Below, in pieces: positions 3,114-44,694 of a DNA stretch of 45,391 nt; position 1 is the first letter of the stretch, and the number at the start of each line of letters is the position of its first letter. The translations under genes were made by a program, and so were the position numbers. The notes under the pieces were generated by a model that was not told where the DNA came from, ran no database searches, and worked only from the letters and a program-made list of their open reading frames with translations. This DNA comes from a virus (taxonomy: Duplodnaviria > Heunggongvirae > Uroviricota > Caudoviricetes), in IMG/VR virus record IMGVR_UViG_2778261297_000007, positions 1-45,391 of that record, one strand, 5' to 3'.

Positions 3114-3238
3114 GCTTGATTGCCTCTCGTTAGTTCATTTTGGTTGTAGAAAGATTAGCGGCAAGCATTAATGCAAAAAATCCGCGTACCAAAAATACAT
3201 TTTTTACAACACTTAACTAATTGATATTTGGTGTTTTT

Positions 3239-3841
3239 ATGTTGACAGCGATTGAGTTTTGCGAAGAAATTAGTCAAAAATCGGTTTGTCTTTCTGGGCA
3301 GATGGTCGAATGTGATTGGGACATATACATTGATATGCTCAGCGAAAGTTATCCTGCGATACTGAAGGAACTAAGCGAAATGCGAGATCAGTTCTGGAAT
3401 TCTGATAAGGTAGGAACACGTGTGGTTTTGTATAGTGCTCCATCTCATGAAGAGTATAAATATTGTACTGGTGACAGAGTGGGTCAATTAATAGAGGAAT
3501 ATGCTGAATTATATGATCCAGTTCAGGAATGCTGGAAAGAGTTAAAGTCACGTATTTTCAGGGGAACATTTTCTCATCTTATTCAGGATCCTTTTTTAAT
3601 TAATGATGTGTTTAAATCACATCTATTTTTTGCCTCGATGTCTTATCAATGGGGAAAATCAGTTATGTCAGAGAATGAGTGTGTTGCTATTAAAGCATTC
3701 ATTAAATCTTCTGAATTATTTGATAGATGTATTGGTATGTCATGGTTTCATGTTTCTGTATGTGCTCAAAAAAATTATCCCATGTTAGAGCTAAAGCCGG
3801 AAAACAAGGTGGGAGCAGTAAAGCGGAAGTATATCGAGTAA
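3239..3841 (+). CDS. Hypothetical cargo protein (unknown function), AT-rich
   Basis: Open frame opposite to int/alpA; ATG at 3239 preferred over TTG at 3221; no recognisable domain; low GC relative to flanks. Confidence 0.4.
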   Translation: MLTAIEFCEEISQKSVCLSGQMVECDWDIYIDMLSESYPAILKELSEMRDQFWNSDKVGTRVVLYSAPSHEEYKYCTGDRVGQLIEEYAELYDPVQECWKELKSRIFRGTFSHLIQDPFLINDVFKSHLFFASMSYQWGKSVMSENECVAIKAFIKSSELFDRCIGMSWFHVSVCAQKNYPMLELKPENKVGAVKRKYIE

Positions 3842-12386: not shown

Positions 12387-12489
12387 AAAGAATCCTCAAA
12401 CGTCTACTGGTTGCTGGCTATAACCGCGGCTTTTTGCGTGAGGAATTCGTGACTATGTGCTTTATAAAATTCGATTTACGGAGTGTGTG

Positions 12490-14361
12490 ATGACCCCTGC
12501 TGAGTTATCTGAAAAATTGTGGGACAACGCCGAAAGAGTTGCGAAATACCTGCTTCCACGAGGACACCTCGAGGGCAAGGAGTGGTGCGCTGGTAATACC
12601 AATGGTGATGCCGGTAAGAGCCTGAAAATTAATCTCGGTGGTAAGAAGACTTGGGCAGATTTTGCAAGCGGCGACAGCGGAGACCTGCTTGATCTTTGGG
12701 TGCTGGTGCGTAACTGCCAGCTGCACGACGCTATGCGGGAAGCGAAAGAGTTCCTTGGGCTGAAGGACGACGATAACCACTTCGAGGCGAAGAAAAAAAC
12801 CTTCTCACGGCCAACCAAAAAAGGCGTTAAAAAGGCGAGCCATTGCTACGACTACCTCTCTTCCCGTGGCATCACCCGAGAGACAGCTGATCAATTCCGT
12901 GTTTCGGACGCAGTCGTCTGGTACCACGATGAAAACCGCGAAATTCCGGCAGTGGCGTTTCCGTATCTTCGCAACGGTGAGCTTTTGCAGGTAAAGCGAA
13001 TCGGCACTGAACGACCAAATGGCAAAAAGTTGATCATGGCTGAAGCTGATTGCGAGCCATGTCTGTTTGGCTGGCAGGCTATGGACGCGAAAGCTCGCGC
13101 TGTTGTGCTTTGCGAAGGAGAGATTGACTGTATGACCTACTCGCAATTCGGTATCAGTGCTCTATCGGTACCGTTCGGCGGTGGAAAAGGGGCCAAACAG
13201 CAATGGATCGAATACGAGTATCACAACCTCGACCGATTCGAAGAAATTTGGTTAAGCCTCGATAACGATGATGTAGGGCGCGAAGCCGCAAAAGAAATTG
13301 CTCGTCGCCTGGGGGAGCATCGTTGCCGCCTGGTAGAGCTGCCGCACAAAGATATCAATGAATGTCTGACCTCCGGGATGAGCGAGGATGAAATCTGGCA
13401 CTACTTGGGGACCGCTAAATTCTTCGACCCTGATGAACTCTGCTCTGCGGGTGATCTCCTTCAGGAAACACTGGATGCATTCGAGCATCGAGATGTTGGA
13501 TTATTTTCCAGCCCGTGGGATTCGCTGAACAGTAATTTCAAATTCCGCGCCGGAGAGCTGACGCTGGTTAACGGAGTAAACGGCCACGGAAAAACCGAGC
13601 TGGTGGGACATATCGCCGTCAATGCCATGAGCCAGGGAGTCCGGGTATGCATTGCCTCGCTGGAGCTTAAGCCTGGGAAAATGTTGGCTCGTCTTACCCG
13701 GCAAACCATTTGTAGAAAAAACCCAGAACGTACTGAAATCATCATGACTAACGAGTGGTTTTCTGATCGTCTTTGGGTGTTCAAACTCACCGGAACAGCC
13801 AAGGCCGATCGACTGTTGGAAATATTTGCCTATGCCAGACGCCGCTATGGAATCGATCTTTTCGTTATCGACAACTTGGCAAAATGTGGACTCGATGAGG
13901 AGGACTACGGTGGACAAAAAGAATTTATCGATACCCTCTGCGACTTTAAAAACGAGCACAACTGCCATGTTCTGCTGGTAACGCATGCCAGAAAAACAAA
14001 CGAAGCTGCACCAACAGGGAAAATGGATGTTAAAGGCACTGGCGCTTTAACTGACATGCCCGACAACGTTATGGCGGTCTGGCGTAATATCCCGCGCGAA
14101 CTGGCGCAGCGCAAAGCTGAAAGAATGGGGTATGAGAGCCTTGATAAGGACGAACAGACTGCTATCCAAATGCCCGCTTCGATGATCCGCCTGTTGAAAC
14201 AACGTGAAGGGGAAGGCTGGATCGGAGACATAGGGGCTAACTTTGATTCCCGCTCACACCAGTTTATCGAGGGTGATAAAGGGCCCTTCAATTACTTGGC
14301 CGGCAAACAGCAAAGTGAACTTGATATTGAGTGGGAAGCCACCAACGCAACGAGGTATTAA
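12490..14361 (+). CDS. Bifunctional primase/helicase (Toprim primase + RecA/DnaB-like NTPase)
   Basis: Toprim-like acidic motifs (EGEIDCMT, LDNDDVG) in the N-half and a Walker A (GVNGHGKTE) in the C-half. Confidence 0.65.
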   Translation: MTPAELSEKLWDNAERVAKYLLPRGHLEGKEWCAGNTNGDAGKSLKINLGGKKTWADFASGDSGDLLDLWVLVRNCQLHDAMREAKEFLGLKDDDNHFEAKKKTFSRPTKKGVKKASHCYDYLSSRGITRETADQFRVSDAVVWYHDENREIPAVAFPYLRNGELLQVKRIGTERPNGKKLIMAEADCEPCLFGWQAMDAKARAVVLCEGEIDCMTYSQFGISALSVPFGGGKGAKQQWIEYEYHNLDRFEEIWLSLDNDDVGREAAKEIARRLGEHRCRLVELPHKDINECLTSGMSEDEIWHYLGTAKFFDPDELCSAGDLLQETLDAFEHRDVGLFSSPWDSLNSNFKFRAGELTLVNGVNGHGKTELVGHIAVNAMSQGVRVCIASLELKPGKMLARLTRQTICRKNPERTEIIMTNEWFSDRLWVFKLTGTAKADRLLEIFAYARRRYGIDLFVIDNLAKCGLDEEDYGGQKEFIDTLCDFKNEHNCHVLLVTHARKTNEAAPTGKMDVKGTGALTDMPDNVMAVWRNIPRELAQRKAERMGYESLDKDEQTAIQMPASMIRLLKQREGEGWIGDIGANFDSRSHQFIEGDKGPFNYLAGKQQSELDIEWEATNATRY

Positions 14362-14362
14362 A

Positions 14363-14674
14363 ATGGATCGCCTAATTAGAGAAATGTCGTATCTCTTTAC
14401 CAAGCAGCGTTTTATGGAGCTTCAGGAAACGGCAAAAGACATCGCAATCGGTCATAGTGATTTTCCTGAGTGTTTCGGTCTTATTGCTGACGCCATCGCT
14501 GAATTTGTTGAAGACACTCCTGATGATGAGTGGCGAGAGCATGAAAAAATCCTTATGCACTACGTTGCTATGCGTGTTCTGACGCTGTGGGGTAACGGCG
14601 ATAAAGTGACTGATGTCCAGTGGGCGCACCCTGGCTGGTTTGGCACTGCTGAAAAGGGGGAAACCATTCAATGA
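14363..14674 (+). CDS. Hypothetical protein
   Basis: 103-aa ORF with GAGG RBS, translationally coupled to Q. Confidence 0.4.
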   Translation: MDRLIREMSYLFTKQRFMELQETAKDIAIGHSDFPECFGLIADAIAEFVEDTPDDEWREHEKILMHYVAMRVLTLWGNGDKVTDVQWAHPGWFGTAEKGETIQ

Positions 14675-15507
14675 AGTTGGAAGCATCACTAAAACACTTT
14701 AGCCCTCAGGGTGTGCACATCAGCGACGACGTGAAAGGAACCTCTCCGGACCGCCTTACAGGAACAGATGTAATGGCGGCAATTGGCACCACCAGCAGCC
14801 GTGCGCGCTTCGGACTGGCGGCGTTCTTCGGTAAAGCGGGAATCAGCAAAACGGATGAACAGCTCGCAGTTCAGGCGCTGGCGCGATATGCGATGGATGT
14901 CGCACCGAAGAATGTTCGCAAAGCAGCTGGTGGGCAGTTCGGATGGTGCATGCAGATGTTGGCACAATTTGCCTTTGCTGATTATTCACGTTCGGCGGCT
15001 ACAAGCGTGACGTGTCACAGCTGCAGTGGTACCGGACGAACAACCCGCGAACAGATTACCCGCAAGGTTTCGTACCCATGGGGTAAAGCTCCATACTGGG
15101 CCTGCCGCTCTCGTGCTGTTCGACCGTCTGACTGGGAGCAGTGGATGGAGGTAACAGAGGTTGTACCGGCGGTCTGTGATGCTTGCGAAGGCAAGGGAAC
15201 GATCAGCGCCCGTTGTCGTTGCGGCGGTAAAGGCGAGGTTCTAGACCGCAAGGCCACAAGCGAGCGCGGCGCGCCGGTGTTTAAAACCTGCGAGCGCTGC
15301 AGCGGAAATGGATTTTCTGCGGTGCCGTCTACCGCAGCCTATAAAGTGATACTGAAGCGCGTTCCGGATCTGCACGTCAGAACATGGACTCGCAACTGGA
15401 AACCGTTTCTTGAGGCGCTGGTAAGCATTTGTCAGCAGGAGGAGGGAAACGCCGCAAGAGAATTTCAATCTGCAACCAGTTTAGGCGAAGAAGGTGACGA
15501 AATTTAG
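14671..15507 (+). CDS. Q: Antitermination protein Q-like (zinc-finger type)
   Basis: Cys-rich CxxC clusters (CHSCSGTG, CDACEGKG, CERCSGNG); located between the replication and lysis modules as for lambdoid Q. Confidence 0.6.
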   Translation: MKLEASLKHFSPQGVHISDDVKGTSPDRLTGTDVMAAIGTTSSRARFGLAAFFGKAGISKTDEQLAVQALARYAMDVAPKNVRKAAGGQFGWCMQMLAQFAFADYSRSAATSVTCHSCSGTGRTTREQITRKVSYPWGKAPYWACRSRAVRPSDWEQWMEVTEVVPAVCDACEGKGTISARCRCGGKGEVLDRKATSERGAPVFKTCERCSGNGFSAVPSTAAYKVILKRVPDLHVRTWTRNWKPFLEALVSICQQEEGNAAREFQSATSLGEEGDEI

Positions 15508-15596
15508 CATTATTACGACATAAGGCTTGATTTTGTCCGAAGTTGTCGTGTATGCTTCTAATCATGCGGAGTAACGCCTGAAAGATTTCAACAATA

Positions 15597-15618
15597 AGCC
15601 CCTTGCGGGGCTTTTTTA
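15597..15618. terminator. Hairpin terminator between Q and the convergent moron
   Basis: aagcccc-ttgc-ggggctt followed by T6 on the plus strand; overlaps the moron stop codon. Confidence 0.5.
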
Positions 15619-16566
15619 TGGCAGCGAGTTAACGAAAGAACTGAAAAGGGCCTTATCTTTATTGCTAATTGATTTTTTCAAATGTAGTTGATGATTTAAA
15701 GGTTTAAAGTTTTCCTTTGTGAGATATATACATGCTTTCTCAAAACGATCCTGAAGGAATTGAAATCTTTCATTCAGCCTGGAAACTTTTAATCCTAATG
15801 ACATGACCTTCTTCTCAGGAATATCGTCAGGATTGCAATTATTGAGTTCTTCCAGCACAAGGCGAATATCTCTTTCGAAGATTAGCGCTATGTTATAATC
15901 GTTGAGGAGGCATTCAGGATTACGAACAATGCCAATTACTTCGTCGATGAATTGTGGTTTTACATTATCCTCAGCATTTTCATCTTCGTTATCGGAAGGT
16001 TTTTGAGACATAACATTCGACAACTGCATTTCTTCCTTGGTTTTCCTTCTGGGAAGTAAAACTTTTCCATCTCCTAAAGCAGCCATACGTTTCAAAGCTT
16101 GACTCCCGGCTCGGCCAACTACTTTAGAATCTCTTAAATCTAAAATTTTATGTGCGACCCATTCTAATGATGGTTCACTGGCTTCGATTTTGGCTTTTGC
16201 TTGGTAATGGAGAAAAATATTTTTCTTGGCTTCCTTGAGGGCTGTTAGATATCTGTGGAAATTTGCCTTTTTCTCGAGGTCAGTGGCTAGGTTTTCAAAT
16301 GCTATACCGAAGACTTTTGTACCGCAAACGTGACCCAGGTTCGTCTCCAGACCATCCTCAGTAAGAACAAGAAACCCTTTTTTATGGCCTGTTCGACAGC
16401 TCGACTTGCCACACGGGATTTCTTCCGGGAGGTCATCATAATAACCAAAAACATCGGATAATTGTTGATCGGTCAGTTCCAGCCTGGAATGATAGCTTTC
16501 CCGAGCTTGAATTTCTGTCCAGTCATTAATGCGATCAAAGCTATTGCCGTTTTTAATAAAAATCAT
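15616..16566 (-). CDS. Moron: 316-aa protein of unknown function (AT-rich, Cys/His cluster near N-terminus)
   Basis: Long ORF on the opposite strand to the flanking late/regulatory genes, low GC, no recognisable domain; N-terminal PCGKSSCRTGHKKG...GHVCG motif. Confidence 0.55.
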   Translation of the reverse strand: MIFIKNGNSFDRINDWTEIQARESYHSRLELTDQQLSDVFGYYDDLPEEIPCGKSSCRTGHKKGFLVLTEDGLETNLGHVCGTKVFGIAFENLATDLEKKANFHRYLTALKEAKKNIFLHYQAKAKIEASEPSLEWVAHKILDLRDSKVVGRAGSQALKRMAALGDGKVLLPRRKTKEEMQLSNVMSQKPSDNEDENAEDNVKPQFIDEVIGIVRNPECLLNDYNIALIFERDIRLVLEELNNCNPDDIPEKKVMSLGLKVSRLNERFQFLQDRFEKACIYLTKENFKPLNHQLHLKKSISNKDKALFSSFVNSLP

Positions 16567-16690
16567 ATCTTCCCTTGCTCTGGTTAGATTGAAAGCACTG
16601 CCGCTTGATATTTAACCATTTCCCTGATTGTTTTTCATCATAAAACCATATTATTGCAAGGGTAGTTTTACCTATGTATCTTCTTGCTCC

Positions 16691-16767
16691 CGGCCCTTTA
16701 GCTCAGTTGGTTAGAGCGTGCGACTCATAATCGCCCGGTCGCTGGTTCAAGTCCAGCAAGGGCCACC
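16691..16767 (+). tRNA. tRNA-Ile2 (CAU, ileX-like; may score as tRNA-Met)
   Basis: Cloverleaf with anticodon loop CTCATAA; close to the E. coli ileX sequence as recalled; ends in CCA. Confidence 0.7.
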
Positions 16768-16769
16768 AG

Positions 16770-16844
16770 ACCGCCACTAGCTCATCGGGAAGAGCGGCAA
16801 CCCAGGTGTTGTGGTACGGGGTTCGAGGCTCCGGTGGCGGACCA
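16770..16844 (+). tRNA. tRNA-like sequence with anomalous anticodon arm (possible pseudo-tRNA or unusual tRNA)
   Basis: Good 7-bp acceptor stem, D arm and T arm (TTCGAGG loop), CCA end; by hand-folding the anticodon loop is 6 nt (CCAGGT), so the anticodon is unresolved. Confidence 0.4.
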
Positions 16845-16846
16845 CT

Positions 16847-16922
<76 letters not shown>

Positions 16923-16925
16923 TAT

Positions 16926-17000
<75 letters not shown>

Positions 17001-17380
17001 GTTTAAGCTTTTCGGTCTGCGATGATGGGTTCCCCGGAGTGACTGGAAAGCGACCTGGTTTTGAATGGGCGCTGCTTTTTGCAAAATTGCTGTGTGAAAA
17101 TACTGACCTTTGGGTTCAGCGCTCATCCAAAAGCATCACGTGAATTCACCAACGCTCATGTACTCTCCAGGAAACAATAAGTGATTCTGAAAAGTTCCGG
17201 TTAGATATTGCCCCGGTCACCGGATGATTTTATCTTTTGGTTCGTGGTGAATCCTCCTATGCGGCGGGGCGTCCAGTCAAACTTTTTTGTCCAGGTTTGT
17301 TTGCGCGGAACTAGTCGGCTGGGGCTGTTCCACCGGGAGGCACCCGGCGCCACCTCCTTGACGGTATTGTTATTTTTCAT

Positions 17381-17407
17381 GCCTGTTCGTCCGAGCAGGC
17401 TTTTTTT
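17381..17407 (+). terminator. Strong rho-independent terminator (candidate tR'-like)
   Basis: gcctgttcgtccgagcaggc hairpin followed by T7 in the long non-coding stretch between the tRNAs and the holin. Confidence 0.5.
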
Positions 17408-17811
17408 GCCCGCATTATCTTCATTGAAAACTGGCAACTCAGAGAATCATCCAAATTAAAAAAGCAGCAACGAGAGCGATTACTAATACATTCTTCGCTT
17501 TTTCTCTTCTGCTGGCCTTCACAAAAGGATTCACTATCCGGCAGTGGCTACACACAAGTGATTCTGGGTTAATTAACTTTCCGCAGTAGGGACAGGGCTT
17601 GATAATCATTGGTACTAATTAAGTTGTGAGAACGTAGTCTCATTTAACCACATTTATCGAGTTGTTTTACTAATGGTCTAGTTATTTCAGACATATTCAT
17701 CAATTTCAGGCTCACGGGAATCATCCGCTACGTGCTTTGTTGATAAATCCAGCCCGTGAAGCCTGACCCTTTCATCACACACAGCACCCGCTAACTATGC
17801 GAGGTGAGGCT

Positions 17812-18150
17812 ATGAAAATGAATGACAAGAACCCTGAATTCTGGGCTGCGGCTTTGACCGGACTCAAAAATGCGTGGCCCCAGATTCTGGGGGCGTCAAT
17901 GGCCGGACTCATTGCCTATGGTCGTCTGATATATGACGGTGCAACACGAAAAAATAAATGGCTTGAGGGCGTCCTTTGTGGCGCCCTTTCTTTATGCATC
18001 ACCAGCGCGCTTGATGTGGTTGGCCTTCCTGTATCGATATCACCGTTCGTCGGTGGTGTGATTGGATTCGTTGGCGTGGACAAACTGCGCGAGATCGCTA
18101 TCAGCGCACTCAGAAAAAGGGCAGGGGTGAACGATGACAATCAGCAATGA
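17812..18150 (+). CDS. S: Holin, lambda S-like with dual-start motif (MKM)
   Basis: Resembles lambda S in layout: MKM dual start, hydrophobic TM segments, C-terminal KRAGVNDDNQQ; GGTGAGG RBS. Confidence 0.7.
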   Translation: MKMNDKNPEFWAAALTGLKNAWPQILGASMAGLIAYGRLIYDGATRKNKWLEGVLCGALSLCITSALDVVGLPVSISPFVGGVIGFVGVDKLREIAISALRKRAGVNDDNQQ

Positions 18151-44331: not shown

Positions 44332-44694
44332 TGGTGGAGCTGGCGGGAGTTGAACCCGCGTCCGAAATTCCTACATCCTCGGTACTACATGCTTAGTCAG
44401 TCTTTACATTCGCTTGCCAGCTGCGGACGGACACGCCACTAACAAACTAGCCTGATTAAGTTTTAACGCTTCAACCCCAGGCAGGGCTTCCACGCGATCT
44501 CTTTTGGGTTTGACCTCTCTTGATCCCCGTCCTAAGAGCGGAGGCTAGGGAGAGAGGGCTCTAAGCAGGTTATTAAGCTGCTAAAGCGTAGTTTTCGTCG
44601 TTTGCGACTATTTTTTGCGGCTTTTTACGAGGCCAACCGCCCCTCGGCATGCACCTTGGGTTTCGCAAATCCCGTCGAATCCAGAATCAGCCCC
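44332..44694 (-). ncRNA. ssrA: tmRNA (SsrA)
   Basis: Reverse complement begins GGGGCTGATTCTGGATTCGACGGGATTTGCGAAACCC and ends ...GGACGCGGGTTCAACTCCCGCCAGCTCCACCA; contains the tag-template region (...AAACGACGAAAACTACGCTTTAGCAGCTTAA). Confidence 0.9.

Follow-up and report, generated by a model that had tools for sequence, protein, structure and literature searches.

The interval between the antiterminator gene Q and the lysis genes of lambdoid phages is a cargo and conversion slot, occupied by stx in 933W-type phages and by bor/lom in lambda, and genes of this kind are the morons of the Hendrix-type concept; the immunity region carries prophage exclusion genes, among them rexAB of lambda, sieB of P22 and nun of HK022. 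Here we describe a gene of this general niche on a 45,391-nt stretch of tailed-phage DNA (IMG/VR record IMGVR_UViG_2778261297_000007, positions 1 to 45,391; hereafter the window, in whose coordinates positions are given unless a locus is named). It is an ATG-started open reading frame (ORF) of 316 codons (951 nt) on the minus strand at 15616–16566, between Q and the tRNA and lysis genes, and it encodes a full-length member of PHROG 7003, a family annotated as of unknown function. The gene shares its genomic niche with BstA, rexAB, sieB and stx-type cargo, yet the only family to which it belongs is PHROG 7003. Our preferred reading, to which we give a probability of roughly 0.45, is that it encodes a lysogen-expressed, stand-alone anti-phage factor, acting in superinfection immunity or abortive infection, which is silenced by convergent lytic transcription.

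BstA of the Salmonella prophage BTP1, a partner-less protein of ~300 aa which is encoded next to cI and has an N-terminal DNA-binding domain, prevents phage DNA replication and thereby aborts infection (bioRxiv 10.1101/2020.07.13.199331). By analogy, BstA would be the closest functional counterpart of the 316-aa protein: both are prophage-encoded, about 300 aa long, without a partner and patchily distributed across Proteobacteria; both BstA and PHROG 7003 combine a conserved, putatively nucleic-acid-binding N-terminal domain with a helical C-terminal part; and the cI-adjacent cargo slot of BstA is like that of the PHROG 7003 subfamily B and Pseudomonas homologs described below. Membership of the BstA family was rejected, as the PADLOC BstA model finds BstA-BTP1 itself (1.9e-124, the positive control) but neither the 316-aa protein nor any of 87 diverse relatives, and hhalign gives a relationship a probability of 0.2%. 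Where BstA has a KilA-N-like domain the 316-aa protein instead has a putative CCHC zinc module (Pfam is null, also for the 87 relatives), and where BstA is co-directional with cI the 316-aa gene opposes its neighbours. No aba-like direct repeat was found around 16540–16620, at the start codon, in a sequence-only test that might miss a different element.

The exclusion genes of the immunity region offer a second comparison. As with rexAB, sieB and nun, expression in the lysogen would be expected, and the subfamily B and Hollowayvirus homologs lie beside cI/PL; unlike these genes, the 316-aa gene has no homology to them, lacks the membrane segments of RexB and SieB and does not occupy the N position of Nun. 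Membrane-based exclusion was rejected, the protein having no transmembrane segment (maximum 19-residue hydropathy 0.82).

The antisense ORF that a first-pass annotation of the window had drawn at 15616–16566 is exactly as claimed, with all flanking genes on the plus strand, where the region of the ORF itself holds no ORF of more than 43 codons. The ORF is a genuine gene subject to purifying selection. The ratio of nonsynonymous to synonymous substitution rates (dN/dS) is 0.071–0.081 against four diverged copies (dS 0.05–0.68), and because of this ratio, together with hundreds of homologs, we do not regard it as a chance ORF. It is also a compositionally foreign, optional single-gene unit. The markedly lower G+C content that had been claimed for it is borne out, at 39.1% (36% at third codon positions, GC3) versus 55.7% in Q (GC3 55%) and 52.3% in the lysis genes, with 48.9% for the whole window; among 889 sliding 951-bp segments the ORF ranks as the 52nd lowest.

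The setting of the gene is best understood from the transcription signals downstream of Q, for which lambda PR′/tR′ and the 933W late region serve as models of a Q-dependent late promoter and its terminator. Q itself (14671–15507, plus strand; PF03589, E = 6e-54; phrog_127) is convergent with the 316-aa ORF. A promoter-like block follows 20 nt downstream of Q on the plus strand (15527–15566), consisting of TTGATT, 18 nt, TATGCT and then TCTAATCATG, and ~30 nt beyond it an intrinsic terminator hairpin with a T-run (15596–15613, plus strand) abuts the stop codon of the ORF. Escherichia coli D53-1, with a Q 76% identical and no gene in the slot, has the 41-nt core of the block (15528–15568) at 100% identity between diverged flanks, and has the hairpin downstream of Q as well. 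Across five loci with Q 64–81% identical the block is retained (consensus TTGACT...TAT(G/C)(C/A)T) and the hairpin stem shows compensatory changes, and Salmonella phage Fels-1 has the same block 36 bp downstream of Q. From these parallels we infer that 15527–15566 is a Q-dependent late promoter, PR′, with its Q-binding/pause region, and that the hairpin is tR′; the hairpin is read primarily as belonging to the late operon because its stem varies among loci by compensatory changes and it persists even in a phage without the gene.

This changes part of the earlier picture, in which the gene was bracketed by signals of its own, including a hairpin terminator at its 3′ end. The hairpin does exist, but its T-run lies on the plus strand and a terminator scan scores it as a plus-strand terminator, so that it is better read as the tR′ of the late operon than as a terminator made for the gene. 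On the minus strand it is followed by TTATTGTTG, a direction which the scan did not flag, and it may at best serve as a weaker bidirectional terminator. As the plus-strand-oriented tR′ is the only 3′ hairpin of the gene, we see not a self-contained unit but a gene embedded head-on in a late transcription unit: with PR′–tR′ upstream on the plus strand, an antiterminated late transcript would have to cross the 951-nt ORF antisense, and would then, by analogy with the model phages, reach the tRNAs, a second terminator at 17381–17400 and the lysis genes. As a separate observation, a perfect 13-nt inverted repeat (TGAAAGATTTCAA / TTGAAATCTTTCA, at 15579–15591 and 15760–15772) encloses tR′ together with the final 50 codons of the ORF; such a repeat is unexpected by chance in 1.2 kb, and the diverged loci show no conservation of it.

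The slot so defined is variable across related prophages, as a check suggested by the first-pass annotation has found. D53-1 carries the same PR′–tR′ block and the tRNAs with the slot empty, Fels-1 has an unrelated 130-aa antisense gene, STM0904 (3120–3512 of locus L110, minus strand; hhalign probability 0.15%), directly after the PR′-like block, AW1.7 keeps a 191-aa remnant, and phage phi467 and locus L032 have frameshifted copies. Because Fels-1 carries an unrelated antisense gene at this point, the comparison shows that the slot after tR′ is a general site for head-on cargo. A clean insertion with target duplication was considered and rejected, since the empty-site comparison reveals the replacement of a segment and not a bounded insertion. 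The proposal that the gene is a moron, or accessory cargo, placed after Q and ahead of the tRNA and lysis genes where the content varies, is supported by its antisense orientation, its foreign G+C content, its candidate promoter and its absence, replacement or truncation in related phages. It resembles other lambdoid morons in being an optional gene of the Q-to-lysis interval with deviant G+C content and candidate transcription signals of its own, and the same interval holds tRNAs, plus stx2 in the prophage of STEC276 and in phi467. The difference is one of direction, in that stx runs with the late transcript and depends on it, whereas the 316-aa gene stands head-on to it.

In E. coli the gene is rare: of 5,426 complete genomes, 5 hold this allele whole and 22 hold a 62% allele, and two AW1.7 assemblies have a truncated copy. 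The E. coli chromosomes with identical DNA include that of strain MS 115-1, in which the product is listed as a hypothetical protein (WP_000576246.1). Its rarity in E. coli and the truncated and frameshifted copies would fit inert or decaying passenger DNA in this host, but the dN/dS of ~0.08, the conservation of a promoter-like block upstream, and intact copies, identical in protein, that span E. coli, Enterobacter and Salmonella (522 contigs) make that explanation highly improbable.

Head-on placement is not peculiar to this window. We examined 32 related viral contigs, in which subfamily A comprises copies of 58–100% identity and subfamily B copies of 27–34%. Subfamily A lies directly against a PF03589-type Q, and convergent with it, in 28 loci, all but L033 of the 29 that have that flank, and its other flank, with tRNA sets and lysis genes, is mosaic among loci; the identities of the gene and of Q are only loosely coupled, a gene of 89% occurring with a Q of 73% and a gene of 67% with a Q of 80%. 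Subfamily B always lies between cI-proximal genes and leftward early genes of Klebsiella-type prophages and is opposed to the leftward genes, and a third lineage, the Pseudomonas Hollowayvirus phages, has a 315-aa homolog in a comparable position. Head-on topology therefore recurs in three independent phage lineages, in the Q slot, in the cI/early-left slot and in Hollowayvirus. Of 22 non-redundant viral loci, 9 have the gene opposed to both neighbours, versus 10.8% for other genes there (binomial p = 2.7e-4), a count that uses crude ORF calls and is conservative in that two loci scored as ‘same’ are opposed according to their annotation.

Two of these loci bring the family next to toxin genes. 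The Stx2e prophage of the Shiga toxin-producing E. coli (STEC) strain STEC276 (locus L087, NZ_CP091022.1, 3301–6896) has, in order, Q, the family gene (antisense), tRNA-Arg, stxA2e/stxB2e and holins, and phi467 (locus L045, 2278–5866) has Q and stxA/stxB separated by a frameshifted distant copy; with the family gene antisense between Q and stx, a Q-dependent toxin transcript must cross it head-on. One might suppose from this arrangement, from a stop codon that abuts tR′ and from the near-constant contact of subfamily A with the PR′–tR′ module beside an otherwise mosaic flank, that we are dealing with a phage-internal regulator or insulator, whose protein or convergent transcription limits leaky read-through from PR′/tR′ into tRNA, toxin and lysis genes of the lysogen or tunes the timing of lysis. 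Phages with the same PR′ block, however, either lack the gene (D53-1) or carry unrelated cargo (Fels-1), other subfamilies are found near cI or in non-phage defence islands without any Q, and a role in transcription alone would leave the strong purifying selection on the protein unexplained; we consider this explanation quite unlikely. The proximity to stx2e in STEC prophages, in what is the classical conversion slot of lambdoid phages (stx, bor), might equally point to a lysogenic-conversion factor directed at host physiology or virulence and not at phages. This we regard as very unlikely, given a protein with neither signal peptide nor transmembrane segment and a family whose occurrence in environmental Burkholderiales, Lysobacterales and Pseudomonas argues against a role specific to animal hosts.

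The non-coding stretch upstream of the gene (16567–16691), where it had been suggested that a promoter might lie, does contain a conserved promoter-like element, as predicted from sequence. The candidate promoter (16638–16610, minus strand) has a −35-like ATGAAA at 16638–16633, a 17-nt spacer and an extended −10, TGgTTAAAT, at 16618–16610, and a Shine-Dalgarno-like AAGGGAAG (16576–16569, minus strand) stands ahead of the ATG at 16566. Both the promoter-like elements (TGnTTAAAT) and the ribosome-binding site are kept in copies only 58–67% identical in protein, and the intervening bases vary; in an alignment of copies 58–100% identical in protein, positions T83, G84, T87, A89, A90, T91, A92 and T93 are invariant. 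This pattern supports, although it is no proof of, an independent promoter for the 316-aa gene.

The protein itself belongs to a large family. It matches phrog_7003 over its full length (E = 3.5e-118, 395.6 bits; residues 1–315 on profile positions 1–308 of 309), and an exhaustive profile search gathered at least 808 representative clusters (50% identity) at E ≤ 1e-3, 500 of them at E ≤ 1e-10, nearly all of which are stand-alone proteins of about 300 aa; word-seeded searches gave 31 relatives in Enterobacterales. PHROG 7003 is thus larger than its phage members suggest, with many members in bacterial chromosomes. All 87 of the diverse relatives match phrog_7003 and none matches an annotated family. 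The first-pass annotation had recognized no domain, and profile and structure searches likewise end without one: no model of Pfam (E ≤ 1), NCBIfam or PADLOC matches the 316-aa protein, and a match to the NCBIfam model CsxC was rejected as noise (14 bits against a cutoff of 135). Within a literature search of incomplete coverage, no paper mentions WP_000576246 or phrog_7003 and no publication on the family was found.

Conservation is concentrated in the N-terminal domain, whose mean pairwise identity is 42% versus 21–23% elsewhere. Over the 87 sequences Y43, C52, C57, H61, G64, G78, C81 and G82 are invariant, and T75, N76, F86, F90, E179 and N286 reach 90% conservation or more; H79 is variable, distant members having K, N or other residues in its place. 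The Cys/His cluster that had been noticed earlier (IPCGKSSCRTGHKKG...GHVCG) is present, as is the acidic stretch SDNEDENAEDN, and the motif C52-x4-C57-x3-H61-x19-C81 (16324–16413, minus strand, codons 52–81), which spans a predicted zinc knuckle, a beta hairpin and the N-terminus of a helix, is most simply read as a four-ligand (CCHC) structural zinc site. An HNH or beta-beta-alpha-Me nuclease is not supported for this cluster, where neither profile nor fold searches recognized a conserved catalytic His-Asn-His/Asn triad on a beta-beta-alpha-metal fold, and no other enzymatic signature was seen in the protein. An AlphaFold2 model built with 31 sequences is confident (mean predicted local distance difference test score, pLDDT, 89.6; predicted template-modelling score, pTM, 0.73) and has four parts: a beta-rich N-domain (1–87) with a hairpin (64–69, 74–77) and a helix (79–86) after the zinc knuckle; a helical region (88–166); a beta hairpin (168–174 / 206–213) bearing a disordered acidic loop; and a C-terminal helical bundle (217–313). 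The loop (15952–16008, minus strand, codons 187–205) is acidic, variable and predicted to be disordered, with pLDDT below 50 at 192–201. Region 88–166 is basic family-wide (median isoelectric point 9.7, above 8 in 85% of members), and the C-terminal helical domain evolves fast. With no signal peptide and no membrane segment, the product is predicted to be a soluble protein of 36 kDa, which by its zinc motif and basic region may bind zinc and nucleic acid.

Nothing in the libraries searched matches the protein in known fold or annotated family. Foldseek found no significant match for the model in the PDB (best E 0.9) or in BFVD (best E 0.04, TM-score 0.15), and sequence searches of solved structures, with the single sequence and two profiles, gave nothing beyond coiled-coil-like noise (ATP synthase subunit b, E 0.04).

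What the protein might do is suggested by the company that its relatives keep in bacterial chromosomes. When one genome of each species was scanned, another 38 loci emerged, distributed over Burkholderiales, Lysobacterales, Pseudomonas, Endozoicomonas, Eikenella and a few metagenome-assembled genomes. We read the gene as a single-gene unit because no neighbouring gene is conserved across 35 distant loci; a two-gene system was rejected on the same ground, with 144-aa and 329-aa downstream genes and a 56-aa ORF only inconsistently present. The neighbours in distant loci include S24 repressors (five), HTH_3 proteins (four), integrases (three) and ImmA/IrrE-like peptidases (three). Known or candidate defence genes within three ORFs comprise a complete Gabija system (L055; GajA 8e-236, GajB 4e-243), GajB (L052), a type IIG restriction-modification (RM) gene (L064), PDC-S06 (L054), a PD-T4-6-like kinase (L048), a CBASS cyclase (L070) and a type III RM methyltransferase (L075). 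This neighbourhood points to a role in defence, in a suggestive and not a decisive way. The two Gabija neighbours (L052, 5349–8900; L055, 4098–8894) involve different GajB subtypes, one homolog being co-directional downstream of gajB and the other divergent from gajA, an adjacency that may reflect co-location in an island or a functional link. The genome of Pseudomonas agarici LMG 2112 has a distant member in four copies, each on its own contig of ~9.5–11 kb (L078–L081), which suggests a multi-copy mobile element or prophage.

The same observations bear on a counter-defence or host-takeover function, in which the protein would neutralize a host immune system early in infection, for instance through contact with a nuclease/helicase complex that it binds, or redirect a host process. 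Phage accessory slots are known to hold anti-defence genes too, a protein without a catalytic domain and with a helical, rapidly evolving C-terminal part would suit a binding function, and the link of two distant homologs to Gabija operons could in principle be regulatory or antagonistic. We nonetheless hold this function to be unlikely: an orientation against the early-left and late operons implies no co-expression with lytic genes, the chromosomal members adjoin several different defence systems and not one, and the protein resembles no solved structure in the copy of the PDB searched. Complexes of Gad1 with Gabija are among the structures deposited in the PDB.

The first-pass annotation had also ventured a defence or abortive-infection factor, and here the outcome is divided. 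The part that has gained support is the placement, the family occurring in prophage immunity and cargo slots and beside Gabija, RM, CBASS, PDC-S06 and PD-T4-6-like genes; the part that has not is recognition by any defence model, as no family of PADLOC-DB v2.0.0 was hit at E ≤ 10 by the 316-aa protein and only scattered single weak hits were obtained with the 87 relatives. Several further points weigh against our preferred reading of the gene as an anti-phage factor. Its association with defence islands is modest, at 7 of 35 distinct distant loci, and this is a raw count from crude ORF calls without a formal background. The DefensePredictor supplementary tables were searched for the protein strings without a match, and no likeness in sequence or structure to a known defence protein or enzymatic effector was found. 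A strict sigma-70 consensus scan of the minus strand found no promoter, and expression in the lysogen is predicted from sequence alone. In 5 of the 22 viral loci the gene is co-directional with both neighbours, and slots of this kind are also occupied by anti-defence genes and regulators.

Taking these points together with the evidence for it, the anti-phage reading would combine promoter activity, expression in the lysogen, binding of zinc and nucleic acid, a defence phenotype and a collision switch in the following way. The 316-aa gene, as accessory cargo of a lambdoid E. coli prophage, would be transcribed from its own extended −10 promoter, against a Q-dependent late transcript that would start at PR′ (~15527–15566), pass tR′ (15596–15613) and run on to the tRNAs and lysis genes. 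The target of the zinc domain and the basic arm would be phage nucleic acid or a nucleoprotein complex, with specificity coming from the variable helical domain. On induction, Q-antiterminated late transcription would collide with the gene and silence it, sparing the phage's own lytic growth.

The window has several other features. Upstream of Q on the plus strand lie a primase/helicase gene (12457–14361) and, listed between it and Q, a 143-aa ORF. Beyond the 316-aa gene a plus-strand tRNA array (16692–17000) comprises Met/Ile2-CAT, a decayed tRNA-like copy, Thr-TGT and Gly-TCC, with four calls by ARAGORN, of which Rfam confirms three. The other call, at 16771–16844 (plus strand), has an abnormal, two-base anticodon according to ARAGORN, no match to the Rfam tRNA model at E ≤ 0.1 and no NCBI annotation, and locus L018 has a tRNA-Leu in its place; it is probably a decayed tRNA. 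Between the array and the holin gene (17797–18150, plus strand), with the CHAP endolysin and Rz genes also on the plus strand, lies a match to the small RNA STnc100 (17219–17411, plus strand; Rfam, 66.5 bits against a gathering score of 47), which ends in the second plus-strand terminator (17381–17400). A second small antisense ORF (17439–17609, minus strand; 56 aa, 41.5% G+C) encodes a zinc ribbon (DUF2116/Zn_ribbon_3) and, towards the C-terminus, a hydrophobic segment; it accompanies the 316-aa gene in some loci (L014, L015 and L034) and is absent from others, and because the two co-occur in some loci only we regard it as separate cargo and not as a partner. Close to the end of the window is a transfer-messenger RNA gene (ssrA, 44332–44694, minus strand; tag ANDENYALAA), which suggests that the window is a lambdoid prophage near ssrA, probably occupying or adjoining the ssrA integration hotspot.

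A wider generalization, which we put forward as doubtful, is that PHROG 7003 as a whole is a structurally new, stand-alone antiviral family, whose CCHC domain and basic arm would recognize replicating or transcribing phage nucleic acid, and whose head-on mounting inside antitermination-controlled operons (late, after PR′–tR′, or early-left) would let lytic transcription switch the gene off, a form of self-immunity by transcription collision. Even if the family is not antiviral, it would still rank among the better-defined ‘dark’ phage families, given its conserved motif, a model of high confidence and clear genetics. In some STEC prophages the gene separates the Q/PR′ region from stx2e or stx2f, a position relevant to the way in which lysogens insulate toxin and late genes from read-through, and if the collision reading is true, Stx2e and Stx2f prophages would have a unit transcribed in the opposite direction interposed between Q and their toxin genes. 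Should the family prove antiviral, it would be a widespread single-gene immune protein of a previously unseen fold, with at least 808 clusters (50% identity) in Beta- and Gammaproteobacteria and their temperate phages, and it would embody a design principle in which head-on placement in antiterminated operons serves as the self-immunity switch, unlike the aba DNA element of BstA.

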